Source: Chloroflexota bacterium
GTDB taxonomy: Bacteria > Chloroflexota > Anaerolineae > VGOG01
Assembly: GCA_016875995.1 (NCBI GenBank)
Contig: VGOG01000001.1
Coordinates: 7,386 to 71,385, forward strand
DNA length: 64,000 nt
Reading direction: 5' to 3'
Under the pieces are notes generated by a model. That model did no database searches and had not been told where the DNA came from. It worked only from the letters and a program-made list of their open reading frames with translations. Shown here piece by piece: positions 2,597 through 63,978 of the stretch. The position numbers and the translations under genes were made by a program. How positions within the stretch are numbered: the first letter of the stretch is position 1; every line of letters starts with the position of its first letter.

Positions 2597-2683
2597 GGGA
2601 CAAGGGACTAGGGACAAGGGACTAGGGACAAGGGACTAGGGGCTAGGCCCACCTGATCCCTTGTCCCTTGTCCCTAGCCCTAG
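2597..2683. repeat. Palindromic heptamer array (GGGACAA/GGGACTA units followed by inverted copies)
   Basis: Three direct GGGACAAGGGACTAG units are followed by inverted CCCTTGTCCCTTGTCCCTAGCCCTAG, giving a long hairpin between convergent tyrS and the Mo-enzyme gene. The last ~16 codons of that ORF (..[16 protein letters not shown]) are read from the repeat. Confidence 0.85.
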
Positions 2684-5521
2684 AATCTTCTTCGGCGTGG
2701 CCGGCAGGCTGTAGATGCGTACGCCGGTGGCGTTGTAGATGGCGTTGACGATGGCTGGTGCCGTAGGAATGGAAGGGATCTCGCCTATCCCCTTGGCTCC
2801 GTAGGGCCCTTCGGGTGCTCTATCCTCCACGATGATGGGCACGATCTGCGGGGTGCGCTCGATGGAGGGGATCCTGTACCTGGCCAGAGAGGTGGTCTTG
2901 GGGATGCCTTCCTCCATGACAAACTCCTCCTGCAAGGCGATGCCGATCCCCATCACCACCCCGCCCTCGATCTGGCCGGCCACCGCCAGGGGATTCAGCG
3001 CCCTCCCCACATCGTGGGCGGCGATGACCTTGAGCACCTCCACCTGGCCGGTGTTGGTGTCCACTTCCACCAGAGCGGCCTGGGTGGCATAACCGAAGGC
3101 AAAGTGCATGTCGCCCACTTCACCCAAAGGCACGGTCTTGGGAGGCTGGTAAACGACCGAGGCCCGCACCTCGCGCCCCTCCCCCTTGGCCAGGGCAACG
3201 GCCTGGGCTAAAGAGATGGATTCCTTCCCTCCGTTTGCTGCAGAGGGGCGTCCCCATCCCGTTTTGTAGCAAAAAGCGTGAACGCGCCCATTCTTGAAAA
3301 CCAAACGATCAGGCGGAGCACCCAATTCCTCGGAGGCGGCCTGAGCCACCGCCTCCCTCACTCTCTGAGCCGCCAGGCGGACGGCGTTGCCGGTGATGAA
3401 GCTCTGGCGCGAGGCGGTGGTGGCGCCACCGTCGAGGGTCTGATCCGTATCGGCGACCAGCACCTCTACCCAATCGTAGGGCAGCCCCAACTCCTCGGCC
3501 GCCACCAGGGCCAATACCCCCACCAGCCCCTGCCCCACCTCCGCCGCACCTGCTCGCACGATGGCCCGCCCATCACCAGTAAGCTCCACCTCGGCCCCGG
3601 CACAGTCTGGCGCCCCACCGCCCAGGCCGACGTTTTTGTAAGCGCAAGCCACACCCCAAGCCATTCGATTTTCGATTTTCGATCCTTCGGCTTCGCTCAG
3701 GACAGGTTTTCGATTTTCGATTGTTGACGTTTCACGTTTCACGTTTGACGTTTCACGTTTCACGTTTGACGTTTCACGTTTCACGTTTGACGTTATTTCC
3801 TTTTCCACCCTATCAATCGTCTCCAACAGCCCCACGCTCTCCCTGAGCACCTGGCCCGTCGCAGTGGTGGATCCTACCCGCAGGGCGTTTTTGCGCCGTA
3901 TGTCGAAGGGCGAGAGGCCGAGTTCCTCCGCCAGGATGTCCATCTGGCTCTCCATGGCGAAGGCCGCCTGGGGCACCCCGAAGCCGCGGAAGGCCCCGGC
4001 GGGGACGTTGTTGGTGTAGGCGGCGTAGCAGTCCACCTTGACGTTGGGCACATCGTATGGCCCGGCGGCGTGGGTGGCGGTGCGGGTCATCACGTGCTCG
4101 CTCAGACTGGCGTAGGCCCCGGCGTCGCCGTAGATCTCGGCCTGGACAGCGGTGAGCCGGCCATCCCTGGTTGCTCCAGTTTTCAGGCGGATGGTGGTGG
4201 CGTGGCGCTTGGGGTGGACGAACAGCGATTCCTGGCGGGTGAAGACCAGCTTCACCGGACGGCCAGTGGCCTGGGCCAGCAGGGCCAGGTGAATCTGCAC
4301 CGAGATGTCCTCTTTACCCCCGAAGGCCCCACCCACCTGGGTAGCTTTCACCCGCACCTTCTCCTCAGGGATGGCCAGGCTGGCTGCGATCTGGCGGCGG
4401 TCGTCGAAGGGGATCTGAGAACCTACGTAGACGGTGATCCTCCCCTCCACATCCACCGCAGCCACTCCCGCTTCGGGTTCCAGAAAGGCGTGATCCAGGC
4501 TGGGTGTGTGATACTCCCTCTCCACGATGACATCGGCTTCAGCGAAGCCCTTCTCCGCATCCCCCTTGCGCACCTGGATGTGCTTGAGGAGGTTGCCGCC
4601 GTCGTGGACCAGGGGAGCGTCGGGGGCCAGTGCCTGTTGGGGGGAAGTCACCACCGGCAGGGGCTCGTACTCCACCTGGATGAGCTCCAGGGCCTGCTCG
4701 GCGATCTCAGCGGTCTCGGCGGCGACCAGGGCGATGGCGTCGCCCACGTAGCGCACCTTGTCGTAGGCCAGCACCGGCCAATCGGGGCGAACCAGGCCGT
4801 GGTTCTTAGCGCCGGGAACATCTTCGGCGGTGAGGACAGCAACCACGCCGGGCAGGGCCTTGGCTCTGCTGGCGTCCACCTGCAGGGGGCGGGCGTGGGG
4901 ATACTTGCTGCGCAATACCCTGGCGTGTAGCATCCCCTCGAAGTAGAGGTCAGCAGCAAAGGTCGCCTGGCCCGTGACCTTGGCTCTGGCGTCGGGGCGA
5001 GGAACTGGACGCCCAACCGCGGTCAGAGGGCTCTCTGCCGTGGGGATCTGCGGTGGCGTGCCCTCCGCCGCTCCCCGAATGGCCTGGATGATTCGGGTAT
5101 AGCCAGTGCAGCGGCAGAGGTTGCATTGGAGCGCGTCTTTGATCTCCTCGTCGGTGGGCTGGGGATTAGCATCGAGCAGGGCTTTGGCGGCCATGATCAT
5201 CCCTGGGGTGCAGAAGCCGCACTGCACCGCCCCGTGCTCGATGAAAGCCCTCTGCAACGGATGCAACTCGCCGTTCTCAGCCAGCCCCTCGATGGTCTCC
5301 ACACGCACTCCATCGGCGCGGCTGGCCTTGTAGATGCAGGAGCGCACCGCCTTGCCATCCACGATCACCGTGCACGCCCCGCAGTGCCCCTGGCCGCAGC
5401 CATTCTTGGTCCCCGTGAGATGCAGCTCGTCCCGCAGCACCTCCAGCAGGGTGGTCCTGGGCCCGATCTCGACTTGATGGGCAGAGCTATTGACGTACAG
5501 GGAAATCGTTCGTTTTCTCAT
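2636..5521 (-). CDS. Xanthine dehydrogenase-family molybdoenzyme with fused N-terminal [2Fe-2S] domains (aldehyde oxidoreductase/MOP-like architecture)
   Basis: 961 aa. The N-terminus [12 protein letters not shown] ... [10 protein letters not shown] ... CRCTGY gives the two 2Fe-2S clusters. The rest is the molybdopterin-binding large-subunit fold ([28 protein letters not shown]). No FAD domain is present. It carries an in-frame repeat insertion. Confidence 0.85.
3664..3794. repeat. Composite tandem-repeat block inside the Mo-enzyme CDS
   Basis: TTCGATT x2, core CCTTCGGCTTCGCTCAGGACAGG, TTTTCGA x2, then CGTTTCA/CGTTTGA heptamers x9. On the minus strand it translates in-frame as [43 protein letters not shown]. 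Confidence 0.9.
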
Positions 5522-5555
5522 ACATCAATACCTTTAGCTTACCCTGACAGAAATC

Positions 5556-5583
5556 GGGCGACCTCCCTGTAGGGAGGTCGCCC
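5556..5583 (-). terminator. Hairpin terminator downstream of the dodecin gene
   Basis: GGGCGACCTCCC-TGTA-GGGAGGTCGCCC, a perfect 12-bp stem, followed on the minus strand by GATTTCTGT. Confidence 0.55.
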
Positions 5584-5597
5584 GCATGGGATCCGGC

Positions 5598-10829: not shown

Positions 10830-12242
10830 TTGAAAACGTCGAGATTTATGATTCTCGTGATCTTGATAGTTATTACGATAGCCTTCTTCTACAAGCTAAA
10901 CGACTACCGCACCTATCAGCATCGGATCCCGCGAGGAGTTTCGCTAGCAGGCATCTACCTGGGAGGGAAATGGGAAGCAGAAGCGATGGAACTCCTGGGA
11001 GAAGCTTGCTCAGAGCCAGTAAAGCTGAACTATCTAAACCACAGTCTTCTCCTTCATCCCCAGGACGTCGGCTTCCAATTCAAGGCCGAGGAGATACTGG
11101 AAGAAGTAAATAGGCTAAAAGCACAGACCGGCTTTTGGCAGGGCTTCACCGATTATATCCTGAGCGACGAGCCACAGCCGGTGAACATTCCCCTCCAGGC
11201 CAATCACGACGAGAAGCGGCTGAAGAACCTCCTGACCAGCATCGCCGAGGAGTACGACCGCTCACTGCAAGAGCCTTATGCCAACGCCGACACCCTGACC
11301 TTTGTGGCCGGCCGGCCGGGTCAACAACTCGACATCGCCGCCTCTCTACCGCTGGTCATCGGCGCGCTGCACTCGGCCACCGACCGCGAGGTGGACCTGG
11401 TGGTAAAAGTGAGCCCGCCCTCGCGCGAGCCTGGCCTGTGGATGATGGGGCAGTTGATCGAGGGCATCATGGCGGACTTCCCCGGTTTCTACAGCGTCTA
11501 CATCAAAGACCTGGCTACTGGCGAGGAGTTCGCCGACGACGCCGACGTGGCCTACTCCGGCACGAGCATCCTCAAGATCGCCATCATGGTGGAGGCCTAC
11601 AAACATCTGGATGGCCCGCCCGACCTGGACACCACCAAGATTCTGACCGAGACCATGACCCTCAGCGGGAACTATACCGCTAACCTCCTGCTGCGCTACA
11701 CCATCGGCAACGGCGACGCCCAGGAAGGCGTGCGGCAGCTCAACGAGACGATGAAGCTCATCGGACTGGTCAACACCTTTATGGCCACCCCCTACGACAC
11801 GGCCGTTCTGCCGCAGCACATCCGCACCCCAGCCAACCAGCGCACCGACGTCAACACCAACCCCGACCCCTTCATGCAGACCACCCCCCAGGACATGGGC
11901 CGCCTGCTGGAGATGATCTACCAGTGCGCCAAGGGCGGCGGCACGCTCATCGCCGCCTACCCCGACGAGCTAACCCCCGACGAGTGCCAGGCCATGCTCG
12001 ACATGATGTCGCAAAACCGCATCGAAGCCCTCATCGAGGCCGGGGTACCGGAGGGGACGCGGGTGGCCCACAAAAACGGCTGGGTGGGGGACTCCCACGG
12101 CGACGCGGGGATCGTCTTCACGCCGGGCGGTGACTACGTGCTGTGCATCTACATGTACCGCCCAGGCTGGCTGGAGTGGGATGTCAGTTCCCCGCTCATG
12201 GCCCGCATCTCCGAGGCGACCTACAAATATTTCAACCGTTGA
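10830..12242 (+). CDS. Membrane-anchored class A beta-lactamase-like serine hydrolase with an N-terminal PG-binding-like region
   Basis: TM helix ILVILIVITIAFF. SxxK (SGTSILK), SxN (SGN) and KxG (KNG) motifs. It is a paralogue of the first ~700 aa of ORF 15056..20137. Confidence 0.75.
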   Translation: MKTSRFMILVILIVITIAFFYKLNDYRTYQHRIPRGVSLAGIYLGGKWEAEAMELLGEACSEPVKLNYLNHSLLLHPQDVGFQFKAEEILEEVNRLKAQTGFWQGFTDYILSDEPQPVNIPLQANHDEKRLKNLLTSIAEEYDRSLQEPYANADTLTFVAGRPGQQLDIAASLPLVIGALHSATDREVDLVVKVSPPSREPGLWMMGQLIEGIMADFPGFYSVYIKDLATGEEFADDADVAYSGTSILKIAIMVEAYKHLDGPPDLDTTKILTETMTLSGNYTANLLLRYTIGNGDAQEGVRQLNETMKLIGLVNTFMATPYDTAVLPQHIRTPANQRTDVNTNPDPFMQTTPQDMGRLLEMIYQCAKGGGTLIAAYPDELTPDECQAMLDMMSQNRIEALIEAGVPEGTRVAHKNGWVGDSHGDAGIVFTPGGDYVLCIYMYRPGWLEWDVSSPLMARISEATYKYFNR

Positions 12243-20137: not shown

Positions 20138-20141
20138 CGAT

Positions 20142-49574: not shown

Positions 49575-49659
49575 ACAGCGGATAAACCGATGAGAGCTTG
49601 ACGTATCCGCTTATTCGCTCTCATCCGCTGCAGCACATACTTCAGGAGGACAAAAGTCA

Positions 49660-50379: not shown

Positions 50380-50381
50380 AA

Positions 50382-51581: not shown

Positions 51582-51668
51582 GCCCAGGCGATGTGGCTCT
51601 TTCGTTATGATGCCGATTGTACAATATACGGTGATGAACCAAAGACGAAGACGCTAAGGAGATGAATC

Positions 51669-51917
51669 ATGACTGAAACAACTCTATGGATTCGAGACCG
51701 CTTTCCCATCCTTTACGAAGGTAGCGAGGCAAAAGCCGTTCTGGTGGACATCACTTCGTTCGATCAGATGGAGCTCATCATAGACAACCTGTTGAACCGC
51801 GAGGAAGAGCCAGAGGATGCCATCCTGGCTGCTTCCGCTGTTCTGCGACGGTTGGTAGCCCAAGCTCGACAGGAATCGTCTTCGTCCGATTGGGAGCGGG
51901 AGCTCGATGAGCTATAA
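51669..51917 (+). CDS. Small antitoxin-like protein
   Basis: 82 aa, acidic, overlaps the downstream RelE-like ORF by 11 nt. Confidence 0.5.
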   Translation: MTETTLWIRDRFPILYEGSEAKAVLVDITSFDQMELIIDNLLNREEEPEDAILAASAVLRRLVAQARQESSSSDWERELDEL

Positions 51918-52256
51918 CGTGGTTCTCACCCCATCTTTCAAGCACAGCGTCAGAAAACTGCAAAAGCGATTCCGACACGTCAAGGATGATGTGGGCGTGG
52001 CTGTTCGTGTGCTTTTGCAAACTCCGAGACTGGGTGCAGTTCTCCCTAGCGGTTCCGGCGTGCGTAAGCTGCGGTGCGTAACACCGATCTGGGCAAAGGC
52101 AAAAGGGGTGGCTATCGCCTGCTGTACTACGTTGAGGACCAACCCGTGCCAACCATCTATCTCCTGTTGCTATATGCCAAGTCAGACCGAGAAGACATCA
52201 CCCGACAGGAATTAAAGCAATTGCTGGACGAGTTGGCGGACGAGATGGGAGAATGA
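51907..52256 (+). pseudogene. RelE/ParE (HigB/Gp49-type) toxin gene disrupted by a frameshift
   Basis: ORF 51907.. reads ..GSGVRKLRC then goes out of family. ORF 52074..52256, in the frame that starts one base earlier, reads VRNTDLGKGKRGGYRLLYYVEDQPVPTIYLLLLYAKSDREDIT. Joined they give one typical toxin. The break is near 52070-52076. Confidence 0.65.
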
Positions 52257-52319
52257 GTTCAATGAGTAGCGTGTTCAGTGTTTGTCAGTGGCCTCAGTGA
52301 TACAATAAATGGAGAACCC

Positions 52320-52700
52320 ATGATTGACGACTACGCCAAAGCAAACGAACTGATGCGCAAGATGGAAGCCCAACTTCCCATCCCAGCGCGATCAACGGGC
52401 GCGTTGGTCCGCGCCCTGCGGGAGCAAGGAGTCAAGCTCCCCCGCGATCAGGAACTGCAAATCAAGCGCGTGTTCTACATGGGTGACGAGGGTGGCATTA
52501 TGTGCGACGTGACCCTATCGGAAGAAGCGAAAGAGGCCATCGTCGTTTCCATCACCCACCTGCGGGTCTCCGCCCGTCATCCACTGGCGCAAGAGATCCG
52601 CGAATACCAGCAGGAACGGACGCGAAGACTCGCGCTATCGGGAGGACCGAGCCAGCCGTCACAGTTTACGGCTCGTTCGCGCAAAAGGCGGAGACGTTAA
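52320..52700 (+). CDS. Hypothetical protein (126 aa) with an Arg-rich tail
   Basis: ATG 52320 after GGAGAA. No family recognised. Immediately upstream of the large methyltransferase. Confidence 0.45.
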   Translation: MIDDYAKANELMRKMEAQLPIPARSTGALVRALREQGVKLPRDQELQIKRVFYMGDEGGIMCDVTLSEEAKEAIVVSITHLRVSARHPLAQEIREYQQERTRRLALSGGPSQPSQFTARSRKRRRR

Positions 52701-52783
52701 GGAAACGAGCTACGACTGCTATCCCAGCGGCCCGAGAAGCGGTTGGCTGCTGTGCGGTCGTGACGACGAGGAGATTGTATGCG

Positions 52784-55700
52784 ATGAACGAGAATGCCTT
52801 GCCTTTTGGCTACAACTTCACTTCGCACGAGACAGTCCTGGATTTCCTGAGCGATCAGGGCTATCGGGTCGAGTCCACCCCTTGGGATATCTCCGACCTG
52901 TCCGACCGTGCCAGGGAACTGATTGGCTCTATGTCTCTCGTCTCGCACTATGACGACGATGTAGCACCTTTCCAGGTCTTCCTGACTGAACTTGACGTAC
53001 CTCGCCAGGTCAGGCGCATCCGCCGTACCGACCTGCGGATCATCCTGGAACCCTTCTATCGCCGCTATCCCCAAGGCGACTACCTGTTCATCTTCGCCCT
53101 GCCCAATTATGCCAGCGTTGCCCTGGTCAGCCCCAAGCGCATCCGTGGCGAGCCCCGCCACCCCTCCGGAGTAGAGGCTTTAGCCGGTCCGGCTGAAGCC
53201 TCCACTCCAGATCTCTACGCGGCCACAGCTAAACTGCAACTGCGCATCCTCACCCTCGACCCCCGGCACCTCTACCACACCGACCTATTGGTGCTGGAGC
53301 AGATTCGGCTGGGGCCGGAGGATCAGACCGCTGAGGCCATCTGGCGGAAACACCTGGCGGCTTTCGACGTTGAACGGGTCACGCGCCAGTTCTACGAGGG
53401 ATATAAGACGGTATTGGCTATGCTCAAGTCGCAGTTGGCCGCCCAGCGTCGGGTCGGTGCGATGCCTGCTCAGGTGCACGCTTTTGCCCAGCAACTCCTC
53501 AACCGCTTGATGTTCCTCTACTTCGTGCAGAAGAAGGGCTGGCTGCGTTGGAACGGTGAGCCAGACCCCCACTACCTGCGCAGCCTCTGGGAGCGTTACC
53601 GCGACGGAAAGCAAACTGGCGACGGTGGCTTTCACGGATGGTTGCAAGCCCTCTTCCTGGACGCTTTCAACAACCGTCGGGCGACCGTGGCCGCCAATTC
53701 CGCTCTGCCCGACGACGTGCGAGCCTCCTTCCTGGGTATGCCATTCCTCAACGGCGGCCTCTTTGATCAGAACGACCTGGATGACCTGGGGTTCTCTGTA
53801 CCTGACAAATTCTTCGTCCAGCTCTTCGATCGTTTCGAGCGAGAGGAGCCCGGCTTCCTGGAGCGATACAACTTCACCGTGGACGAGAGCACGCCGCTGG
53901 ACGTGGAGGTGGCCGTTGACCCGGAGATGCTGGGCAAGGTCTACGAATCGCTGGTGGCAGAGGAGGAGCGGCACGCCGCGGGCATCTTCTACACCCCCCG
54001 CGAGGAGATTGATTACATGTGCCGTCTCTCGCTCATCGAGTACCTGCACGAGCAGACCGGCTATCCCAAAGACGACCTGATCCCGCTGGTGATGGAGCCT
54101 CGCCGGCTGCTGGAGACTCCCGAAGCTTGTCCCGAGCGGGAGCGAGGGGATGGCATCGTCCCCTTCGGCGGTCTTTCCCAGACCAGGCAGCACGAAGCCT
54201 TGCGGGTTGTGGAGAAGGCGCTACGAGAGATACGGGTGGTAGATCCAGCAGTCGGATCTGGGTCATTCCTGGTAGGCATGATGAAGGCGCTGGCGGAAAT
54301 CCAGCGGGTCCTCGCTCAGAAGCTGGAGCGCAAGCGGTTCAATGAGTTCGACCGCAAGCGGCAGATCATCATGGAGAACCTGTACGGGGTGGATGTGAAG
54401 GACTGGGCGGTGCGGGCCTGTGAGCTGCGGCTGTGGCTATCGCTGACCATCGAAGCTGAGGAGCAACAGATTGGGCTCTACACCAACCCGGTGCTGCCCA
54501 AGCTGTCCTTCCGCGTGCGCCAGGGGGACAGCCTGGTGGAAGAAGTGGCTGGCGTGCCGCTGGCCATGCGCGGTGCCCAGGCCGTGCCAACCTCCCTCCA
54601 GAAGCGGTTGGCCCGGTTAGCCCAGGAGAAGGCTGACTTCTTCGGCGGGCGAAGCCTGCGCAAGCCTGACTACATCGAGCGGGAAGAGCAGAAGCTCCTG
54701 GTGCAGTTCCTCAACGAGCGCATTGACGAAGACCAACGGCAGATGGACGTCCTGCGGCGCGAGCCTGTTGGCACTCAACCAGAACTGGGCCTGGAGGGAG
54801 TCGCCCCCAAGGGCGGGAGCAGGGCAGAAGAGGAAGCCGAGGCCCGACGGCAGGCGCGGATCAAGGCGCTAGACGACCGCCGCCAGGAATTGATCAAAGC
54901 CCGCACGCAACTGACCACCGGCCAGACGCCGCCCTTCTTCGTCTGGGAGGTGGGCTTCGGCGAGGTATTCGCCGAGAAGGGCGGCTTCGACATCTGCATC
55001 GGCAATCCGCCCTATGTGCGACAGGAGGAGATTGGCCCACCCACGGAGAACCCTGACGACTACGACGTGGACGAGTGGCGGAGCCTCAAGCAGGATTACA
55101 AAGACCGTCTGGCGCGGAGTGTACAGGCGTTGTGGGGCAGCGCGGCCAGGGTGGACCGCAAGAGTGACCTCTACGTCTACTTCTACTATGCTGGCCTCTC
55201 CCTGTTGCGGGAAGGCGGGGTGTTCTGCTTCATCAACTCCAACTCCTGGCTGGACGTGGGCTACGGGGCCAGGCTTCAGGACTTCCTGCTGCGGCAGATG
55301 CGGGTGCTGCAAGTCGTGGACAACCAGGCCGAGCGCTCCTTTGCTCAGGCCGACATCAACACCGTCATCGTCCTGCTCCAGCAGCCCAAAGCCGACGGAT
55401 CTCAGTGGGAACACGTGGCGCGATTCACCGCCTACAGGAAACCATTTGAGGAAGTCCTTACTGTTCCCAACCTGCTGGCCATTGAGCGAGCCGCCGATGT
55501 AGCCCGCACCGACGACCTGCGGGTGTATCCCATCGCCCAGCGGGACTTGTTGCTGGACGGAGCCGAACTTCCCGAAGAGGCCGAGCAAGCGGCCATGGAC
55601 TTCGCCGCCCTTGAGACCCTGAAATACCAGGGCGGCAAGTGGGGTGGCAAGTTCCTCCGCGCCCCGGACATCTTCTTCACCATCCTGGAGAAGGGCAAGG

Positions 55701-56635
55701 GGAAACTGGTGCGATTAGGCGAGATCGCCGAGGTCCGCCGTGGTTTCACCACGGGTGTCAATGAGTTCTTCTACCTGGAGCCTACGGGCCAACCTGCCCC
55801 CGAGGGGCTTGTGCATGTGCGCAACGGTGCGGGGTGGGAGGGCTATTTGGAGACCGAGTTCTTGAAGCCTGTCATCAAGAGCCCTCGAGAAGTGCGTCGC
55901 ATCGTTGTTCGCCATGAAGACCTGCGCTACAAGGTCTTCATCTGTCGTAAGTCCAGGACCTACCTCAAGCGTGAGCGCCTTAACCATGCACTGGCCTACA
56001 TCGAATGGGGGGAAAAGCAAGGGTATGATGAAAGACCCACCTGTTGGGGTAGAGCATACTGGTGGGATCTTGGCGAGCACACGTCGCCACCGATTGTCAT
56101 GAATAAAGGGGTAAATGATCGACACTTCGTGACTCTCAACAGTGCCCGCGCCCTGTGCGACCAGCAAATCTACGAAGTGCGGGTGGATGAGGAAGATGTG
56201 ATTGCATCCTTGCTAGGGGTTTTGAACTGGACTGGAATGGGCCTTTTCTACGAACTGATAGGGCGGCGCACCTTCGGAGAAGGCGTACTGTGGATTGCTA
56301 TCTATGAAGCAGCGGCACTTTTGACGCTTGACACGTTTGGCTTGACCGAAAGACACCATAAGCGTCTCAAGAATTCCTTAGAACTTCTATCACAGCGGGA
56401 ATTGAAGAGCATCTTCGAGGAACTCGGCCTTCCCAAGCCCAATCGGGATTACAGCAACATTGACCCCAACGACGTCTCGCTGGACAAGGTGCTGCCCGAC
56501 CGGCGGGCGCTGGATGAAGTGGTGTTCGAGGCGCTGGGGCTGACGGAGGAGGAACAACTGGAGGTGTACCGGGCGGTGGTGGAGCTGGTGAAGATGCGGT
56601 TGAGCAAGGCGCAGTCGGTGCGGGGGCGGGGGTAG
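52784..56635 (+). CDS. Large gamma-class N6-adenine DNA methyltransferase (Eco57I/MmeI/PglX-like MTase + TaqI_C-like specificity region), no recognisable nuclease domain
   Basis: 1283 aa from ATG 52784. LLNRLMFLYFVQKKGWL helix, motif I VVDPAVGSGSFLVGM, motif IV CIGNPPYVRQEE, and C-terminal GRAYWWDLGEH-type specificity region. The upstream 94 codons of ORF 52502 are Arg-rich overlap and were rejected. Confidence 0.85.
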   Translation: MNENALPFGYNFTSHETVLDFLSDQGYRVESTPWDISDLSDRARELIGSMSLVSHYDDDVAPFQVFLTELDVPRQVRRIRRTDLRIILEPFYRRYPQGDYLFIFALPNYASVALVSPKRIRGEPRHPSGVEALAGPAEASTPDLYAATAKLQLRILTLDPRHLYHTDLLVLEQIRLGPEDQTAEAIWRKHLAAFDVERVTRQFYEGYKTVLAMLKSQLAAQRRVGAMPAQVHAFAQQLLNRLMFLYFVQKKGWLRWNGEPDPHYLRSLWERYRDGKQTGDGGFHGWLQALFLDAFNNRRATVAANSALPDDVRASFLGMPFLNGGLFDQNDLDDLGFSVPDKFFVQLFDRFEREEPGFLERYNFTVDESTPLDVEVAVDPEMLGKVYESLVAEEERHAAGIFYTPREEIDYMCRLSLIEYLHEQTGYPKDDLIPLVMEPRRLLETPEACPERERGDGIVPFGGLSQTRQHEALRVVEKALREIRVVDPAVGSGSFLVGMMKALAEIQRVLAQKLERKRFNEFDRKRQIIMENLYGVDVKDWAVRACELRLWLSLTIEAEEQQIGLYTNPVLPKLSFRVRQGDSLVEEVAGVPLAMRGAQAVPTSLQKRLARLAQEKADFFGGRSLRKPDYIEREEQKLLVQFLNERIDEDQRQMDVLRREPVGTQPELGLEGVAPKGGSRAEEEAEARRQARIKALDDRRQELIKARTQLTTGQTPPFFVWEVGFGEVFAEKGGFDICIGNPPYVRQEEIGPPTENPDDYDVDEWRSLKQDYKDRLARSVQALWGSAARVDRKSDLYVYFYYAGLSLLREGGVFCFINSNSWLDVGYGARLQDFLLRQMRVLQVVDNQAERSFAQADINTVIVLLQQPKADGSQWEHVARFTAYRKPFEEVLTVPNLLAIERAADVARTDDLRVYPIAQRDLLLDGAELPEEAEQAAMDFAALETLKYQGGKWGGKFLRAPDIFFTILEKGKGKLVRLGEIAEVRRGFTTGVNEFFYLEPTGQPAPEGLVHVRNGAGWEGYLETEFLKPVIKSPREVRRIVVRHEDLRYKVFICRKSRTYLKRERLNHALAYIEWGEKQGYDERPTCWGRAYWWDLGEHTSPPIVMNKGVNDRHFVTLNSARALCDQQIYEVRVDEEDVIASLLGVLNWTGMGLFYELIGRRTFGEGVLWIAIYEAAALLTLDTFGLTERHHKRLKNSLELLSQRELKSIFEELGLPKPNRDYSNIDPNDVSLDKVLPDRRALDEVVFEALGLTEEEQLEVYRAVVELVKMRLSKAQSVRGRG
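53168..53208. repeat. REP-like palindrome inside the methyltransferase CDS
   Basis: GGAGTAGAGGCTTTAGCCGG-T-CCGGCTGAAGCCTCCACTCC. Same family as the REPs flanking the RAYT gene. Read in-frame as SGVEALAGPAEASTP. Confidence 0.8.
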
Positions 56636-56657
56636 AGCTGGGTAGATTCACTGAACG

Positions 56658-56840
56658 GGGAGTTGAGGCTTTAGCCGGGAACCGCCTAAAGGCTCCACTC
56701 CCTCAGGAAGAAAAAGCTTTGAAACCGCCTGAAAGCTCTACTCCACGAAAGGGGGGCGAGGATTCAGCTAGAACCGCCTGAAGGCTCCACCAGTGTTAGG
56801 AAAGGCTCTACTCAGCATTAGGACAGGAGGCTTCAGCCGG
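56658..56840. repeat. REP cluster (family GGAGTNGAGSCTTYAGSCGG)
   Basis: GGAGTTGAGGCTTTAGCCGG-GAA-CCGCCTAAAGGCTCCACTCC, then CCGCCTGAAAGCTCTACTCC, CCGCCTGAAGGCTCCAC, AGGCTCTACTC, and GGAGGCTTCAGCCGG. Confidence 0.8.
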
Positions 56841-56858
56841 TAGCATTGGAGGTGACTT

Positions 56859-57428
56859 ATGGGGGATCATCACCCACCTCACATCTTCTTGGATGACACC
56901 TGGTATTTCATCAGCAGCTCTACTTTGAACCACGCACGCTTCCTGGCCTCGCCCCGCGCCAAGGCCTTGCTGCGCGATCAACTCAAAGAGCTGATCGTCG
57001 AATTCGGCATTGTTCTACGAGCCTGGGTCATCCTGGACGATCACTACCATCTCTTGCTCAAGACCCGCGTGGGCAAGGACCTGTCCCGCTTCTTCGGTCG
57101 CCTGCACGGAGCCACATCTCGCCAGCTTAACCTGTGGGACGACACAGTGGGCCGCCAGGTGTGGCACAACTACTGGGACACCTGCATCCGTACCGAAGCC
57201 AGCCTCTGGGCGCACTTCAACTACACCCACAACAACCCCGTCAAACACGGCTACGTAGCCTACCCGAGAGATTGGGAATTCTCCAGCTACGGCTACTACT
57301 TGCGGGAGAAAGGCGAGGAGTGGCTAGCCGATTGTTGGGAGCGATATCCGGTGATAGACTACGTTGAGGGAGATGACCTCGGTGGGCCAAAGGAACCGCC
57401 TGAAGGCTCTACTCCCCTTAAACCTTAA
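56859..57428 (+). CDS. REP-associated tyrosine transposase (RAYT, IS200/Y1-like)
   Basis: 189 aa. AWVILDDHYHLLLKT (HUH), NYWD, and YTHNNPVKHGYV catalytic Tyr region. Confidence 0.8.
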   Translation: MGDHHPPHIFLDDTWYFISSSTLNHARFLASPRAKALLRDQLKELIVEFGIVLRAWVILDDHYHLLLKTRVGKDLSRFFGRLHGATSRQLNLWDDTVGRQVWHNYWDTCIRTEASLWAHFNYTHNNPVKHGYVAYPRDWEFSSYGYYLREKGEEWLADCWERYPVIDYVEGDDLGGPKEPPEGSTPLKP

Positions 57429-57496
57429 AGTAAAGGCTTCAGCCAAAAGCCGCCTAAAGGCTCCACATTGGTGACGGGAGTCGAGGCTTTAGCCGG
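57395..57496. repeat. REP cluster downstream of RAYT
   Basis: CCGCCTGAAGGCTCTACTCC (overlaps the RAYT 3' end), AGGCTTCAGCC-AAAAG-CCGCCTAAAGGCTCCAC, and GAGTCGAGGCTTTAGCCGG. Confidence 0.8.
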
Positions 57497-57512
57497 AGAA
57501 AGGGGCGATTCT

Positions 57513-57710
57513 ATGTCCGACAAAACCGACGTTCTGGCAGCCATCGAGATGCTGCTGGAGGAAATCGAAACAGTCATCGAAACATTCAACAGCGAAGGAA
57601 GTGCCGCCTTCGCTTCAGGCAAGCACAAAGAGGCAAAGCCTATGAAGCAACCTTATGACCCTATAACACACGTTCAAAATTTGCCATTTCATTGTGAGAC
57701 TGATGCATAG
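57513..57710 (+). CDS. Small hypothetical ORF (65 aa), possibly a gene remnant
   Basis: ATG 57513. Helical N-terminus MSDKTDVLAAIEMLLEEIETVIETF. No family recognised. Confidence 0.25.
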   Translation: MSDKTDVLAAIEMLLEEIETVIETFNSEGSAAFASGKHKEAKPMKQPYDPITHVQNLPFHCETDA

Positions 57711-57781
57711 AGCTTCCAAAGAGTCCCATTTCAGCAAAAGAGTGGGCAGTACAATCCATCGGGGCCAAGTAGGAGTATGCC

Positions 57782-60700
57782 ATGAGTACCAGCCAACCTT
57801 TTACACTTCCAGACTTGATAGATAATAGCACGCCAGACCGCACCCTGAGCCATATCCTCAATCAGCTCCTGGCAACGGGACCCGCGGTCCACATCGCCAC
57901 CGGCTTCTTCAACCTGGGCGGCTATGCCTTACTGCGCGACGGCCTGCAGCGGGCGTCACGGGTGCGCATCCTGCTGGGCAAAGAGCCGGCCACCACAGAG
58001 GCAAGCCCCGATGCGCCGCCCCTGGTGGAGGAACTGACCGAGGCAGTCGAAGCTGACCTGCACGAGGCGATGGCCACCGGCCATCGCACCGACCACAACC
58101 GCGTGCGCGACTTCTTAGCATTTCTGCAACAGCCCCAGGTGGAAGTCCGCCTCTATCCCCGCCACTTCTTCCACGCCAAGGCCTACATCCTCGACGGCGT
58201 GCCCCCCTTCGGCACCATCGCCATCGTCGGCTCGTCCAACTTCACCACGGCCGGGCTCACCAGCAACACCGAGCTCAACATGGCCCAGAAGCAAGCCGCC
58301 GTCGCCTGCGAGTTCGCCACCTGGTTTGACCGCTTCTGGGCCGAGGCCGAGGATTACAAGTCGGCGCTGATTGAACTCTACACCCGGGCCACGGCCTTGC
58401 ATCCACCCTATCTCATCTATATCAAGGCCCTCTACGAAGCCTTGTCCGACCGGCTGGGCGGCGACCTGGCTCCCACCGACGAGCGCCCTAGCCCCATCCT
58501 GCTGGCCGACTTCCAGCACGACGGCTATCTCACGGCCAAAGACATCCTGGAGACTTACGGCGGCGTCCTCATCGCCGACCCGGTAGGCTATGGCAAGACC
58601 TATCTCGCCCTGCGATTACTGGACGACTACGCCTACCAGTTGCGGCAGAAAGCCCTGGTCGTCTGCCCGGCCCAACTGCGGGACATCTGGTGGAAACCGA
58701 AGCTCGACGTTTATCGCATCTATGCCCACGTGGAATCGCAGGAGCGGGTCAGCCAGCGCGACTTCCCTGTAGAAAGCTACGCCGACGCCGACCTGGTCAT
58801 CGTGGACGAATCGCACAACTTCCGCAACCCCTCGGCCAACCGCTACGATAACCTGGCCCGGCTGCTGCGCACAGACCAGCGCAAGAAGCTGGTCCTGATG
58901 ACCGCCACGCCCATCAACACCAGCGTCTTCGACCTCTACCAGCAGGTGCGGCTGATCACCGGCGACCGGGACGACTACCTGACTGGCGTGGGCATCTCCA
59001 GCCTGCGCGGCTACTTCGTCCAGGCCGAACAGAACCGGGAGACGCTCCACGACCTGCTGGAGGCCATCGCCGTGCGGCGCAGTCGAGAGTTCATCCGTCG
59101 CAACTACCCCGAAGCGGAGATAGATGGCCAGCGCCTCCACTTCCCTGAGCGCCAGCTTCACACCGTGCATTACAACCTGGAAGCGACCTACGAAGAGCTC
59201 TACGCCGAGGTCGCTCAGCTTATTGAGGGACTACGGCTAGCCCCCTATCACCTGGACTTCTATCGCAAGGGCCTGCCGGGAGAGCGATTGGGGCTGTGGG
59301 AGAGATTGAACGAGATTCTCCAGGAGACAGGTCTACCCCAAGAGCAGGCCCAGGCCCTGGCTATGACCCTGGGCCGTCAGGCGTCGCTGGTGCAGATCCT
59401 CAAGACACTCTACCTGAAGCGACTGGAATCCTCAGTAGCCGCACTGCGGATCAGCCTGGAGCGGCAAAGACGTTTCCAACATCGGTTCCTGGAACAACTA
59501 CGGGCCGGCCGTTTACTGGATTCGAGCTCTTTTCGCCACCTAGAGAGCATCGTCAGGCGCATGGCTGGCGAGGACACAGACGTAGAGTGGGAGGAGGCCG
59601 ATGAGGAGCTCCAAACCCTCATCGCCGAAGTCCTGGCCGAGCTGCCCGAGATAGACCTACGCGGTTACGACTTGGCCGCCATCGAAATGGCGGTGACCAA
59701 CGATATCGAAGCCTTGGGGGAGGTGTGCCGCAAGCTGGAACCGCTGACAGCGGCCAAGGACGACAAGCTGGCAGCCCTCAAGGCACTATTGACCGGGGAA
59801 CTGCACGGGCGGAAGGTGGTCGTCTTCACCTACTTCAAGGACACGGCTCGTTACCTGTACCGGGAACTGCGCAAAGACGCGGATTTCCTGCGATCATTGG
59901 GCCACACGCGGCTGAGCATCACCGACGGTGGGATCAAGCCCCAGGAACGCAAGGATCGCATCATCCGCTTCGCCCCCAAAGCTCACGAGCACGAGGACAT
60001 ACGGGGCACTGAACGGGAAATTGACTTGCTTATCAGCACCGATGTCCTCTCCGAGGGCCAGAACCTGCAGGACGCCGACACGGTGGTCAATTATGATCTC
60101 CACTGGAACCCGGTGCGCATGGTACAGCGGGCGGGTCGTATAGACCGCATCGGCTCCGAGTACTACGTGGTATACAGCTACAACTTTATTCCCGAAGATG
60201 CTCTAGAATCCCTGATCAGGCTGATGCAGCGGCTGCGCGAACGATTGGAGGCCATCAACCGGGCTGGCCTGCTGGATGCGCCCGTGATGGGGGAACTGCC
60301 CACCCCACAGGACTTCAACGCCTTGCGCCGCATCGCCCAGGCAGATCAGACCATCTGGAGTGAGTTGGAGTCCTTTTCCGAGCTCGATTTCGGCGAGTTC
60401 TTGCAACAGGAACTGTTGGACTTTTTGAAGCGAGTGGGCGAGGAAAAGCTCAAGGCGCTGCCGCCTGGCGTGGGCACAGGAAAGAAAGCACCTGATGGAC
60501 GGCAGGGACTATTCGTGCATCTCAAAGGGGGCAGCCAGCACTTCTGGCTGTTCTACGACCTGACCACGCGTCGCTTTTTGGAGCGCAAGTTAGAGGTCAT
60601 CCGGCTGGTGCGCTGCTCAGAGAGCGAGCCGGCTGTCGAGCCAGACTTCGATGTCTACCCAATCATTGAGCAGGTCAGGCGGCACGTAGTGGGCCGACTG

Positions 60701-61006
60701 AGACAGGCACAGGTCAAGGTTCCCAGGCTCAAAGCACCGCAAAATCACATCTTGAACTGGCTAAAGACCCAACGAAGGAACGAAGTTATTGAAGAATTAC
60801 TGGCCTACTTCGCGGAACCGCTCCCTGACCCATACCTGCGACGGCTGCGTAGGGTCTGGCAGGAGAACCGACATAGTGGACCGGCACTTTTCGACATGCT
60901 GAGGGCTTTCGCTTGTGACAATCCCGTGAGCCGACCAGAACGACCGGAGGTGCCGGAACTGAGCGAGGATGACCTCTCATTGGTTTGCTACATGGCCCTG
61001 GTGTGA
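57782..61006 (+). CDS. PLD-family (HKD) nuclease domain fused to an SF2 (SNF2/Res-like) helicase
   Basis: 1074 aa. A single HKD motif FFHAKAYILDG..IVGSSNFTTAGL. Helicase motif I ADPVGYGKTYLA, motif II VIVDESHNFRN, motif III LMTATPINT, motif VI QRAGRIDRIG. Confidence 0.85.
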   Translation: MSTSQPFTLPDLIDNSTPDRTLSHILNQLLATGPAVHIATGFFNLGGYALLRDGLQRASRVRILLGKEPATTEASPDAPPLVEELTEAVEADLHEAMATGHRTDHNRVRDFLAFLQQPQVEVRLYPRHFFHAKAYILDGVPPFGTIAIVGSSNFTTAGLTSNTELNMAQKQAAVACEFATWFDRFWAEAEDYKSALIELYTRATALHPPYLIYIKALYEALSDRLGGDLAPTDERPSPILLADFQHDGYLTAKDILETYGGVLIADPVGYGKTYLALRLLDDYAYQLRQKALVVCPAQLRDIWWKPKLDVYRIYAHVESQERVSQRDFPVESYADADLVIVDESHNFRNPSANRYDNLARLLRTDQRKKLVLMTATPINTSVFDLYQQVRLITGDRDDYLTGVGISSLRGYFVQAEQNRETLHDLLEAIAVRRSREFIRRNYPEAEIDGQRLHFPERQLHTVHYNLEATYEELYAEVAQLIEGLRLAPYHLDFYRKGLPGERLGLWERLNEILQETGLPQEQAQALAMTLGRQASLVQILKTLYLKRLESSVAALRISLERQRRFQHRFLEQLRAGRLLDSSSFRHLESIVRRMAGEDTDVEWEEADEELQTLIAEVLAELPEIDLRGYDLAAIEMAVTNDIEALGEVCRKLEPLTAAKDDKLAALKALLTGELHGRKVVVFTYFKDTARYLYRELRKDADFLRSLGHTRLSITDGGIKPQERKDRIIRFAPKAHEHEDIRGTEREIDLLISTDVLSEGQNLQDADTVVNYDLHWNPVRMVQRAGRIDRIGSEYYVVYSYNFIPEDALESLIRLMQRLRERLEAINRAGLLDAPVMGELPTPQDFNALRRIAQADQTIWSELESFSELDFGEFLQQELLDFLKRVGEEKLKALPPGVGTGKKAPDGRQGLFVHLKGGSQHFWLFYDLTTRRFLERKLEVIRLVRCSESEPAVEPDFDVYPIIEQVRRHVVGRLRQAQVKVPRLKAPQNHILNWLKTQRRNEVIEELLAYFAEPLPDPYLRRLRRVWQENRHSGPALFDMLRAFACDNPVSRPERPEVPELSEDDLSLVCYMALV

Positions 61007-61088
61007 GCTCCCCCAGGCCATGACTCCCAACCCATCGGCAAAATCGTGAGTTACAAACTCTTACAATTGATTACGATTTAACCAGGCG

Positions 61089-61601
61089 TTGCTGCACTTC
61101 TTGGATAGCCAAGACTACTTGCTGGTGACAGTGGTCATTGATAAGAAGAGCCATATCGAACGCTATGGAGCAGCAGCTTATCATCCTTATCACTACTGTC
61201 TCGCAGTCTTGTTAGAGCGCTACTGTGGCTTCCTGAACCATTTTCACGCTCAGGGCGATGTGATGGCTGAGAGCCGGGGGAGGAGAGAGGACCAGCAACT
61301 CAGAGCAGCTTATCACCGAGTCTATGAGAACGGCACCTACTTTCACGAAGCGGAGTTCTTCCAGCGGGTGCTGACCAGCAAGGAGATTAAGCTCAAACCC
61401 AAGTCAGCCAATAGCGCTGGGCTGCAACTGGCAGACCTGCTAGCGTACCCATGCAAACAGGAGATTCTCGCTGCTGAGAGGAAGATCGAGGATCCAGGGG
61501 ATGTTTTTGGAAAAGAAGTAGGTCGCCGTATTGAAGCGAAATACAATCGGCATTACCTTGATGGTCGCGTTTGGGGATACGGTAAAGTGCTCTTGGAATA
61601 G
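61089..61601 (+). pseudogene. DUF3800-family gene, apparently 5'-truncated
   Basis: LVTVVIDKKSH..YHYCLAVLLERY..GLQLADLLAYP match the middle and C-terminal DUF3800 motifs. The N-terminal DESG-type motif is absent, and the ORF opens with TTG 83 nt after the helicase stop. Confidence 0.5.
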
Positions 61602-62698: not shown

Positions 62699-62699
62699 G

Positions 62700-63905
62700 A
62701 TGAGCCTGAGAAAGAACCCTGAGAGAGTAGCCTGGATAATCCTCTCCATCGCCTTCGTCGCCTTCTGTTTCCTGGCGGTGAGCATCCCTCTTGGCATCCG
62801 CTGGTACATTATCAATGCCACCCAGGTGCACAAGACGTCCCTCGCCGCCATCAGAGGCACTGTTCAGGTGCAGGAGCCGGATGTGAATAAACCCTTCGCT
62901 TTCACAGGCAGCAAGGATGACGTGCCGGAGGGATCCATTATCACCACCGATGCCACCTCCCAGGCCTTCCTGGAGTTTTTCGAAGACAGCACCCTGCAAC
63001 TCTACAACAACAGCCAGGTGATCATCCAAAAGACACAGTCGCCTAGATTTGACCTCAGCCCCAGGCCCGATACCATCGCCCTGGAAGTGACCGGGGGAAG
63101 AGTCAGGATCGGCGTGGCGCCATCAATGCAATCCGACCTGCACTTCCAGGTGCAATCGCCCCACGTTGCTGTCGAATTGAAGGAAGATGGCAGCTACTCG
63201 ATAGAAGTGACCAGTGAGGAATCCCAGTTGACCGTGAGCCGCGGCCAGGCGAAGGTCACCGCTATGGGGAAGACGGTGGAGTTGGGGCGGGGAGAGAGGA
63301 CAACGGTGGAAATCGGCAGAGAGCCCCTGGGCCCCCTGCCACCGGAGCGAAACCTCATCGTAAACGGTGACTTCAGAGAGTCCCTGGAAAAGGGGTGGTT
63401 TCCCTACAGCGACCGGGATGACCCCAATGAGGCCCACGGCCGGGTGGAGATCGTCACCAGCGGCGCTCGCCAGGCAGTGCTCTTCCAGCGCCTGGGGGGG
63501 AACATCTACCGTGGCGATACAGGTATCATCCAGGCCATAAACAGGGACGTTCGCGACTACAGAGTCGTGGAGCTTCGCCTCTCGGTCATGCTCCTCTACC
63601 AAAGCCTATCCGGCGGCGGAGTATTACACTCCGAGTACCCCATCATGGTCCGCCTGGACTACAAAGATGCCTACGGAAACCCTAACCACTGGGTTCAGGG
63701 CTTCTATTACGAAAACCCTGCTAATTATCCCATCAGCGATGGCCTGGAAATTCCTCGCAACGTCTGGTACTCTTACGAGTCGGGCAACTTGATGGAAATC
63801 CTGGGGGACGTCAAGCCCGCCGACCTTACTTCCATAAGAATCTACGCCTCAGGCCACGACTACCAGAGCATGGTCACTGAGGTGGAGCTGCTGGCCAAGG
63901 AATGA
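62700..63905 (+). CDS. Membrane-anchored FecR-domain-like protein
   Basis: TM VAWIILSIAFVAFCFLAV, then IRGTVQVQ..EGSIITTDATSQAFLEFFEDSTLQLYNNSQVII (FecR-like beta pattern). Confidence 0.55.
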   Translation: MSLRKNPERVAWIILSIAFVAFCFLAVSIPLGIRWYIINATQVHKTSLAAIRGTVQVQEPDVNKPFAFTGSKDDVPEGSIITTDATSQAFLEFFEDSTLQLYNNSQVIIQKTQSPRFDLSPRPDTIALEVTGGRVRIGVAPSMQSDLHFQVQSPHVAVELKEDGSYSIEVTSEESQLTVSRGQAKVTAMGKTVELGRGERTTVEIGREPLGPLPPERNLIVNGDFRESLEKGWFPYSDRDDPNEAHGRVEIVTSGARQAVLFQRLGGNIYRGDTGIIQAINRDVRDYRVVELRLSVMLLYQSLSGGGVLHSEYPIMVRLDYKDAYGNPNHWVQGFYYENPANYPISDGLEIPRNVWYSYESGNLMEILGDVKPADLTSIRIYASGHDYQSMVTEVELLAKE

Positions 63906-63907
63906 TT

Positions 63908-63978
63908 CCGTGAAACGTGATGGGTGAAACGGGAGATCACGCATCACGTTCTCACGTTTCACGTAGTTGCTTCACGTA
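63908..63978. repeat. CGTGAAA/CGTTTCA heptamer-derived palindrome after the stop at 63905
   Basis: CGTGAAACGTGATG ... CATCACGTTCTCACGTTTCACG. Same unit as the array inside the Mo-enzyme gene. Confidence 0.7.

Follow-up and report, generated by a model that had tools for sequence, protein, structure and literature searches.

What kind of repeat can stand between genes, run in frame through essential enzymes and sit inside a regulatory RNA, all within a few tens of kilobases? This question is raised by a 64-kb stretch of DNA from an uncultured member of the Anaerolineae in the phylum Chloroflexota (contig VGOG01000001.1, positions 7,386–71,385; called the window hereafter), for which an initial annotation had listed several families of tandem arrays built from 7-nt and sometimes 8-nt units. 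We lean towards reading these arrays as heptameric, in some cases octameric, simple-sequence repeat loci that resemble the STRRs (repetitive sequences made of short tandem repeats) of cyanobacteria, and not as autonomous mobile elements or elements driven by a RAYT, a transposase associated with repetitive extragenic palindromes (REP). Judged from alignments with relatives, the sites of the arrays are old and their contents are young: the sites are long-lived hot spots shared clade-wide, in which units turn over quickly in place. They are of three kinds, namely the bases directly behind stop codons, linkers or surface loops of proteins, and the apical loop of an RNA. Gain and loss of whole units together with their homogenisation, often in both arms of an inverted pair at once, can be regarded as effectively shown by these alignments.

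Arrays were called in the window with Tandem Repeats Finder and with a lag-autocorrelation (self-match) scan over lags 2–24, compared with dinucleotide-preserving shuffles. The scan found 17 arrays of period 7, totalling 684 nt, and three of period 8, versus at most 0.1 arrays per period in the shuffled controls. Elsewhere between lags 2 and 24 there was no excess, save at the multiples 14, 21, 16 and 24 and for a few weak matches at 12, 18 and 20. Every array listed initially was recovered by Tandem Repeats Finder within a few bases. About 20 array loci are present in the window, with roughly 60% of the arrays intragenic and with copy numbers from about 3 up to 24 (the maximum at 14277–14443); those at 33499, 47312 and 63908 are short and degenerate. 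A network of single substitutions joins most of the units (GGAGATT, GGAGGTT, GGAAGTT, GGATATT, GGGTATT), and outside it stand the families GGGACAA, GTGAAAC, AATCGAA and CTCAAAG and two octamers. That the arrays could be artefacts of short-read metagenomic assembly or binning has virtually no chance of being correct. Contigs do often end at arrays, and one Logan contig (L004) lacks 28 nt, or four units, of the array at 2595, a gap that is either a true copy-number variant or a k=31 graph collapse. However, JGI contigs of three samples (L001–L003) match the window exactly through the arrays at 2595–2675, and two of them (L001–L002) also through those at 3664–3794. The arrays keep frame inside conserved genes, and orthologous arrays occur, at two separate regions, in more than 10 relatives, independent metagenome-assembled genomes (MAGs) from different studies. 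The concern about artefacts voiced in the initial annotation can thus be laid aside.

The closest relatives of the isoleucyl-tRNA synthetase (IleRS, encoded by ileS) and of the xanthine dehydrogenase (XDH)-like protein of the window are found in uncultured Anaerolineae/Chloroflexota MAGs, at 80–87% identity, and the host is therefore no cyanobacterium. The arrays had first been pictured as recent invaders of genes. Alignments of ileS, of the XDH-like gene and of the T-box leader of the ileS operon favour instead old sites with unit turnover, and the comparison of orthologous loci, suggested at the outset as a means to date the insertions, revealed relatives that keep the sites but have other units and copy numbers. 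At the three hot spots of IleRS, the arrays of close relatives differ in unit and length, and the majority of the distant relatives are without arrays. At the exact position used in the window's ileS, three loci with 56% IleRS identity (L055, L056 and L058) carry a direct plus inverted GGAGATT insert (...SPISNLQS). In the XDH-like protein, the linker between the MoCoBD_1 (residues 308–546) and MoCoBD_2 (residues 598–891) domains contains heptamer-derived peptides in 25 of 25 close homologues, such as TSNVKRE, QSSKFKV, IENRKS and IQYPISNI; a group at 67% identity has a linker peptide of its own, and more distant homologues show plain loops. One site with perfectly conserved flanks holds arrays of 65, 35, 30 and 29 nt among relatives. 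Arrays at five positions of the 12–21 kb region are conserved in the relatives L206–L208. The inverted pair at 12249–12361 has an orthologous pair in L206, also with the G-rich arm first, the 14277–14443 array has shorter orthologues in L206 and L208, the 20141–20268 array has orthologues in all three, and the array at 20502–20524 has the same copy number in the three relatives examined. At the propeller-loop site (18369), the sequence of L207 and L208, TCCTCTTCCACCAAAATC, is 'empty', (TCCAATA)3 stands in the window, and L206 carries a full hairpin, (TTGGAAG)5-(TCCAACC)7. Signatures of donor copies were also sought among the window arrays; their longest common substrings reflect just consensus units.

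One array had been assigned to a riboswitch. A cis-regulatory RNA does hold it, but this RNA is a T-box leader (38434–38721, minus strand), and the array occupies the apical loop of its second helix in the Rfam model. Of 12 relatives, nearly all have arrays in this loop. Across them, all units change together in both arms (TTCGTA/TACGAA, TTGGTA/TACCAA, TGGTC/GACCA), and such identical substitution of the two arms is concerted evolution that preserves pairing. In the window the T-box leader controls an operon that begins with a gene for an alaX-like tRNA-editing domain (37686–38399; leader and gene together span 37686–38721), followed by ileS and then lspA. The relative L009 has no alaX-like gene, its T-box lying directly upstream of ileS, and other relatives have 0.2–0.75 kb of extra sequence between parts of the operon.

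How widely such arrays occur was surveyed at 80 ileS loci from GTDB species representatives. Heptamer arrays were present at 9 of 13 loci of the window's clade, at all three loci of the L055 clade and at six scattered further loci, Litorilinea and Caldilineaceae MAGs among them; they were not found at 58 of the 80 loci surveyed (over 1 Mb). The tendency to carry arrays is thus lineage-specific. An exact scan for (GGAGATT)3 found it in at least 120 metagenome contigs of 30–70% G+C from many habitats, and most contigs among the matches listed hold additional heptamer arrays. In viral contigs, three exact tandem units were matched 17 times for GGAGATT, 24 times for GGGGATT and 3 times for GGGAATC, against 4 and 2 matches for stop-free controls of the same composition; the enrichment of GGAGATT there is modest. 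Two small viral contigs from IMG/VR (L241 and L249; 2.1 and 3.3 kb, 25–28% G+C) have matching ends and look circular. Each contains a perfect (GGGGATT)n-GGGCCC-(AATCCCC)n palindrome, the G-first geometry being thus maybe present on tiny replicons.

The arrays between genes had been described as a direct array followed by an inverted one, in a hairpin- or terminator-like arrangement. Several of them do fold strongly, but an inverted partner accompanies just about half of the arrays between genes. The hairpin at 2592–2684 has a dG of -55.4 and a z-score of -5.7 relative to shuffles; the z-scores are -2.8 at 12249–12361, -3.5 at 35556–35652 and -3.4 at 63908–63964, and reach -10.2 for the T-box insert of a relative. 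Single-orientation arrays showed no such stability when folded, and no U-tract was seen 3' of the window hairpins. The pairs obey a strict order. We call FR a pair in which the G-rich array comes first and its C-rich inverted counterpart second, and RF a pair with the C-rich arm first. Each arrangement is its own reverse complement, so the polarity is a true asymmetry and owes nothing to strand convention. Among the matches listed and the window, inverted pairs of the GGAGATT family are 32 FR to 0 RF; in another count they are 30:0 G-first. The other unit families, octamers included, gave 19 G-first and 2 C-first pairs with 4 ties (p = 2e-4), and GGGGATT pairs in the independent viral-contig set gave 9:0. 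Loops measure 0–68 nt, zero-loop palindromes occur, and one arm often mirrors the variant units of the other. The polarity tracks the G/C skew over many unrelated units and not one element sequence. It could be produced by selection against exposed C-rich RNA resembling Rho-loading sites. However, the rule also applies inside translated regions (18:2 G-first for pairs lying in long open reading frames, ORFs), which argues for a mutational component.

We propose that array length would change by replication slippage or unequal exchange, in genes by frame-preserving steps of 21 or 24 nt. The complementary arm may arise when the G-rich nascent strand folds back on itself and switches template within the strand, an event that would account at once for the G-first polarity across unrelated units, the zero loops, the mirroring of variants and the unequal length of the arms. 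The starting point of a new locus is probably either native sequence that happens to look like a unit or a copy of an existing array, primed by microhomology. Selection would then filter the survivors, genic arrays being stop-free, in frame and mostly C-rich, and stop-adjacent ones G-rich in the sense strand. By analogy only, this recalls eukaryotic microsatellites, with their slippage-driven changes in copy number and their cycle of birth, expansion and decay.

Several observations weigh against this scheme. Under RNA parameters the G-rich strands self-pair via G.U pairs and the C-rich strands do not, in 13 of 15 units, but with DNA energy parameters neither array strand folds stably, which leaves the fold-back bias hypothetical. 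By itself, slippage accounts neither for the dominance of GGAGATT at about 12 window loci nor for the fixed unit size of 7–8 nt, and GGAGATT is moreover found at the same ileS site in the 56%-identity clade and in the numerous metagenome contigs mentioned above. No clean birth event with a truly empty site, and no target-site duplication, was found among the loci compared; the 'empty' TCCTCTTCCACCAAAATC resembles decayed units. Finally, the ORF-based statistics rest on crude stop-to-stop ORFs.

Alternatively, the arrays, mainly the direct plus inverted pairs, could be non-autonomous mobile elements of a foldback kind, or resembling MITEs (miniature transposable elements with inverted repeats) or the REP doublets called REPINs, mobilised in trans by a transposase such as the RAYT-like Y1 enzyme of the window. 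The same unit does recur at many loci and in many unrelated contigs, the fixed polarity of the pairs is what defined terminal inverted repeats would give, and an IS200-like/RAYT-like Y1 transposase gene (Y1_Tnp, 189 aa) lies at 56859–57428. As with REPs and REPINs, the repeats are short, dispersed, extragenic and hairpin-forming, with pairs of fixed polarity. REPs are, however, single palindromes of 20–40 nt and fixed sequence that flank their own RAYT, whereas among the heptamer arrays the unit, its copy number and the overall length all vary. An association with the RAYT gene, raised initially as something to test, is contradicted by its surroundings: region 56658–57496 contains five REP-like repeats of 25–38 nt (GAGGCTTTAGCCGG...GAACCGCCTRAAGGCTCYAC), placed on both sides of the Y1 gene, unrelated to the heptamers and confined in the window to these flanks save for one weak match at 53171. 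No heptamer array was found near the gene when the flanks were read and searched. The Y1 gene thus has REPs of its own, and its link to the heptamers is rejected. Arms, loops and boundaries of the arrays vary, contrary to what is expected of MITEs or foldback elements, with neither a common core nor a visible target-site duplication. Together with a polarity that follows skew over unrelated units, and with sites that are orthologous clade-wide and vary in place, this makes a mobile-element origin very improbable.

A second alternative starts from the geometry of the pairs. Interstitial telomere fusions, (TTAGGG)n(CCCTAA)m, have the same G-first order by analogy only, and in such head-to-head fusions each arm has its G-rich strand pointing 5'->3' to the centre. 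A dedicated polar DNA synthesis could add G-rich 7–8-nt repeats to the 3' ends of breaks or nicks, by a telomere-like process or by healing with a reverse transcriptase or polymerase; joining two healed ends would then leave a head-to-head footprint of G-strand and C-strand. It would fit that 57 of 59 skewed pairs have the G-rich strand running towards the centre on both arms, that unit length is limited to 7–8 nt and that GGRGATT-type units recur in Chloroflexota, Nostoc and viral contigs. Even so we hold this to be improbable. Dozens of unit variants, single substitutions apart, coexist per genome, mirrored variants and perfect zero-loop palindromes are unexpected from two independent additions, and the sites are conserved and not random break points. 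The window encodes no reverse-transcriptase or telomerase-like gene, its sole RVT_3 match being an RNase H-like domain, and unlike telomere fusions the arrays have no apparent telomerase or linear ends, come in many unit sequences and are tens of bases in scale. In a broader form, the near-absolute G-first rule, the 7–8-nt limit and the recurrence of GGRGATT-type units in Chloroflexota, cyanobacteria and Xanthomonas-like genomes may together reflect a specific polar DNA-synthesis process of some bacterial lineages, an idea that we consider doubtful but worth stating. In such a process a particular polymerase might let the G-strand fold back and prime itself, or repeats might be added to breaks in a telomere-like manner and, if it exists, the enzyme should be findable by comparing array-rich with array-poor Anaerolineae.

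The placement of the arrays at gene 3' ends bears on another possibility. Eight window arrays start 0–7 nt past a stop codon or overlap it (tyrS, XDH-like, beta-lactamase-like, ~1,700-aa gene, SNF2, FecR-domain, lspA and ileS), and all eight are G-rich in the sense of their gene. The C-rich arm at 2657–2680 replaces the native C-terminus and stop codon of the XDH-like gene, where relatives read ...ILAALEH..., and the array at 20141–20268 extends into the start region of the gene for the PD40 lipoprotein. The 3' array of ileS has the unit GGTTTGA/GCTTTGA, which contains the ileS stop codon and is the reverse complement of an array inside ileS. At the metagenome loci, 18.6% of elements lie within 10 nt of a stop codon versus 5.4% for random placement (3.4x), and arms just past stop codons are G-rich in sense in a ratio of 31:10. 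The arrays could therefore be selected cis elements, i.e. 3'-end or intercistronic stem-loops, hairpins insulating against Rho or ribosome-binding platforms, function and not mutational bias setting their distribution. Beside the stop-codon proximity and the sense-strand bias, the strong FR hairpins and the Shine-Dalgarno-like GGAG agree with this, and cyanobacterial STRRs have been suggested to act in the stability of transcripts or in translational coupling (PMC2670836). We regard such selection as possible but not likely as the main cause. Close relatives already differ through fast turnover of sequence and copy number, many arrays are found in loops of proteins, which call for no function at the RNA level, the hairpins are without U-tract, the ileS 3' end bears either a heptamer array or an ordinary GC palindrome in relatives, and the polarity persists within ORFs. 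In our preferred reading of the arrays as simple-sequence repeat loci, FR hairpins in transcripts probably do act as 3'-end or intercistronic stem-loops, and the arrays that proteins and the T-box carry would most likely be passengers that are tolerated.

The genic arrays were said to be kept in frame and to yield 7-aa periodic peptides, and this was borne out (TSNVKRE three times, ISNLQPP-type peptides). Because neither 7 nor 8 shares a factor with 3, translation of an array passes through every reading frame of the unit, and genic arrays must be stop-free in sense. The sole genic consensus unit that is not stop-free in the orientation used is GAAACGT in the XDH-like gene. There, each third unit is CAAACGT, which puts TCA exactly where an in-frame TGA would fall; with the G restored, three stop codons arise. 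The idea that a stop-free filter would by itself determine the choice of unit was dropped as too weak, 50% of all heptamers being stop-free on both strands. A change by a single unit of 7 or 8 nt would shift the reading frame, as in the contingency loci of phase variation, where copy changes turn a gene on or off. The 21- and 24-nt superperiods and the location in essential genes argue for frame-preserving change. Arms within ORFs are more often C-rich in sense (102:56, metagenome loci). The C-rich orientation gives S/N/Q/P-rich peptides such as ISNLQPP, which suit linkers, and the G-rich one gives DWRLEIG. In IleRS, the insert at 35556–35652 separates the catalytic domain, which extends to residue 640, from the anticodon-binding domain, which starts at residue 707. 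The 1701-aa ORF (called as a 1693-aa gene) could have been four genes joined by stop-free arrays. This was rejected: seven homologues of 1362–1729 aa (six full-length, 1653–1729 aa) indicate a genuine conserved multidomain gene and not a fusion.

Other repeats were seen in the same genes. Within the XDH-like array lies a 17–23-nt motif, CCTGTCCTGAGCGAAGCCGAAGG (PVLSEAEG; 3684–3706), with exact copies in a different gene of a relative (L208, 6736–6752) and in an unrelated metagenome contig (L170, 3391–3407). Its recurrence in unrelated places points to a second kind of small dispersed insert. The L208 copy lies in the loop of a C-rich-first CCCCC...GGGGG palindrome, and peptides like 'PPxxxGG(E/G)', similar to the PVLSEAEG insert, occur in window ORFs such as the 1701-aa one. 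At the junction 6297–6310 of L002, from a Lake Tanganyika sample, the XDH-like gene has a 102-nt in-frame tandem duplication (window 4571–4686; 995 versus 961 aa), a population variant unrelated to the heptamers. The 1701-aa gene contains a 222-nt tandem duplication (15678–16128; two copies, 79% identity, a segment of ~74 aa). At 20356–20497, C-rich quasi-repeats of 6–8 nt (CCCCATCC, CTCCCA) encode a Pro/Thr/Ser-rich linker of the PD40 lipoprotein and are flanked by a G-rich heptamer array on one side and a C-rich one on the other.

Can the arrays be called STRRs? Heptamer arrays of this name have been known since 1990 and used for strain fingerprinting, and their origin is unexplained; Mazel et al. 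reportedly treated these heptanucleotide sequences of heterocystous cyanobacteria in that year. The likeness proposed initially stands for the 7-nt units, the hairpins and the locations in genes and RNA, but not for the unit sequences or the host phylum. Both kinds of array are tandem, able to form intergenic hairpins and found inside a structured RNA gene (RNase P RNA for STRRs, the T-box here). STRRs are dispersed over many loci per genome, and about 20 loci lie in these 64 kb. The STRR units are CCCCAGT, TTGGTCA and CAACAGT, whereas those of the window are GGAGATT, GGGACAA, CGTTTCA and others, in a chloroflexotal host of the Anaerolineae and with a majority of intragenic arrays. ACTGGGG, which we take to be the reverse complement of STRR1, occurred once, at a locus of a Litorilinea MAG (L077). 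The invasion of genes and RNA, put forward as a distinguishing trait, is not one: according to its title, Vioque 1997 (cited in PMC4748335) deals with STRRs inside cyanobacterial RNase P RNA, and 32% of the Nostoc GGGGA(T/C)T arrays are intragenic (PMC4692102).

The latter study (Rehm et al. 2015) offers the closest parallel. Its subjects are the Xanthomonas heptamer GGGAATC and the Nostoc PCC 7120 heptamer GGGGA(T/C)T, in arrays of 2–26 units at ~185 loci per genome. The Xanthomonas arrays include 70–75 pairs in 'convergent orientation', which is G-first, are nearest to the stop codon of the ORF upstream, at a mean distance of 28 nt and on its coding strand, and vary in length between species at conserved sites. 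The window arrays share with these heptamers the G-first pairs, the G-rich coding strand after the stop, an intragenic fraction and changes of length at kept sites. The units are nearly equal too (GGGGATT in Nostoc, GGAGATT here), and L206 holds a direct plus inverted GGGATCA/GGGAATCA array (5278–5345) whose unit is in essence the GGGAATC of Xanthomonas; it occupies the linker that in the window contains TCCAATA and an octamer. The differences are that many more unit families coexist in the window, and that essential enzymes, in their loops, and a T-box leader host arrays. In addition, no G run longer than GG occurs in the main units (GGAGATT, GGATATT, GTGAAAC), and among G3–G4 tracts only GGG is seen, in the GGGACAA family. 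The G-quadruplex rationale of the Xanthomonas and Nostoc heptamers is therefore not applicable to them. MacGregor 2015 (PMC4679880) reported direct repeats of the heptamer TAACTGA in Beggiatoaceae, cyanobacteria and Bacteroidetes. Here as well one heptamer is spread across distant lineages without evident transfer mechanism, is mixed with other heptamer arrays and is translatable in one orientation only. However, the TAACTGA repeats are mostly direct, lie upstream of start codons, contain forward stop codons and rarely form inverted pairs (1 in 170). The arrays also differ from CRISPRs, which have 23–50-nt repeats and unique spacers, in that their 7–8-nt units follow head to tail, spacer-free. 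Taken together, the window arrays fall outside the definition of STRRs by taxon and sequence, and outside that of the Xanthomonas/Nostoc type by G-quadruplex, and are the same kind of repeat as STRRs and the Xanthomonas/Nostoc heptamers on every testable behavioural criterion. No report of heptamer repeats in Chloroflexota/Chloroflexi was found in the searchable literature.

The arrays of the window are compiled in Table 1. The genome segment has a G+C content of ~60% and encodes, beside the T-box leader, a 6S RNA (40610–40788, minus strand; Rfam, 76 bits). Genes that bear or adjoin arrays are tyrS, those for the XDH-like molybdoenzyme, the SNF2 helicase and the FecR-domain protein, the operon T-box–alaX-like–ileS–lspA, and a cluster for secreted cell-wall enzymes (beta-lactamase-like protein, M14-M23 peptidase, four-module protein of ~1,700 aa and PD40 lipoprotein). 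Two defence-type clusters are also present, at 24291–31707 (type I restriction-modification genes hsdM, hsdS and hsdR, a MazF-like toxin and a PIN-domain protein) and at 44208–61601 (an SNF2/DUF3670 helicase, a 1377-aa MmeI/Eco57I-like enzyme, a PLD-SNF2 helicase and a DUF3800 protein).

Table 1. Tandem arrays of the window, with positions in the window, repeat units and surroundings.
Feature	Position	Unit and copies	Remarks
tyrS 3' array, G-rich arm	2595–2647	AAGGGAC/TAGGGAC, 7.6 copies	1 nt past TAA 2592–2594
C-rich inverted arm	2657–2680	TCCCTTG, ~3 copies	overlaps 3' end of XDH-like gene (minus strand)
XDH-like array pair	3664–3683 + 3707–3722	(TTCGATT)2.9 + (TTTTCGA)2.3, in frame	around 23-nt dispersed insert CCTTCGGCTTCGCTCAGGACAGG
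XDH-like array	3724–3794	(ACGTTTC)9.7, perfect 21-nt superperiod	minus strand reads TSNVKRE x3
Beta-lactamase-like 3' array, G-rich arm	12249–12328	GGAGATT family, ~11 copies	7 nt past stop 12240–12242
C-rich inverted arm, loop 0	12330–12361	ATCCAAC, 4.6 copies	palindromic centre GGATATCC
M14-M23 peptidase array	13744–13777	(TCCCTAG/TCCCTTG)4.9, in frame	just two TAG units, both out of frame
M14-M23 peptidase linker array	14277–14443	(TCCAAYC/TCCAGCC)24	peptide repeats ahead of M23 domain
1701-aa ORF linker array	17212–17246 then 17250–17291	(ATCTCCA/ATATCCA)5, octamer (ACCCGACC)4.5	between beta-lactamase-like and GATase modules
1701-aa ORF beta-propeller loop array	18369–18392	(TCCAATA)3.4	
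1701-aa ORF octamer array	18704–18786	(CAAATCAR)9.8, 24-nt superperiod	KSTNQQIS repeats
1701-aa ORF array	19199–19226	(CCCAATA)4	linker ahead of PGA_cap module
~1,700-aa gene 3' array, G-rich	20141–20268	TGGAGAT, ~18 copies, 34-nt superperiod	4 nt past stop
PD40 array	20502–20524	(CCAATAT)3.3	encodes PISNIQYP
lspA-stop array	33499–33527	degenerate CTCTAAT/CTCCAAT	overlaps lspA stop (minus strand; TAG inside array); G-rich in lspA sense
ileS FR hairpin, in frame	35556–35588 + 35630–35652	(TGGAAGC)4.7, 41-nt loop, (TCCAACC)3.3	DWRLEVG...SNIQLQ
Second ileS hot spot, in frame	36176–36221	(CTTTGAG)3.7 at 36196–36221 + short inverted partner	KAQSSKFK
T-box array	38556–38606	~48 nt of TTCGTAR-type 7–8-nt units + inverted arm	minus strand
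SNF2-stop array	47312–47331	(GAGATTG)2.9	first base is last base of TAG 47310–47312
FecR-domain gene 3' array	63908–63964	degenerate hairpin (GTGAAAC)n ... (CACGTTT)n	3 nt past stop

What is added here to the known heptamer systems is the G-first rule in its generalised form, the hot spots of long standing that essential genes and a T-box leader contain, and the concerted evolution of the two arms. The presence of repeats of the STRR class in Chloroflexota makes them a cross-phylum phenomenon and not a cyanobacterial curiosity, the placement at gene ends, the orientation rules and a nearly identical unit being common across phyla. Orthologous hot spots such as those in ileS, the XDH-like gene and the T-box let the birth, concerted change and decay of arrays be tracked, and the G-first polarity is a concrete and testable constraint on the mechanism. 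In practice, the arrays inflate ORF calls and break short-read assemblies. For the organisms that carry them, they mean lineage-specific low-complexity inserts in essential enzymes, and C-termini that are extended or overwritten.

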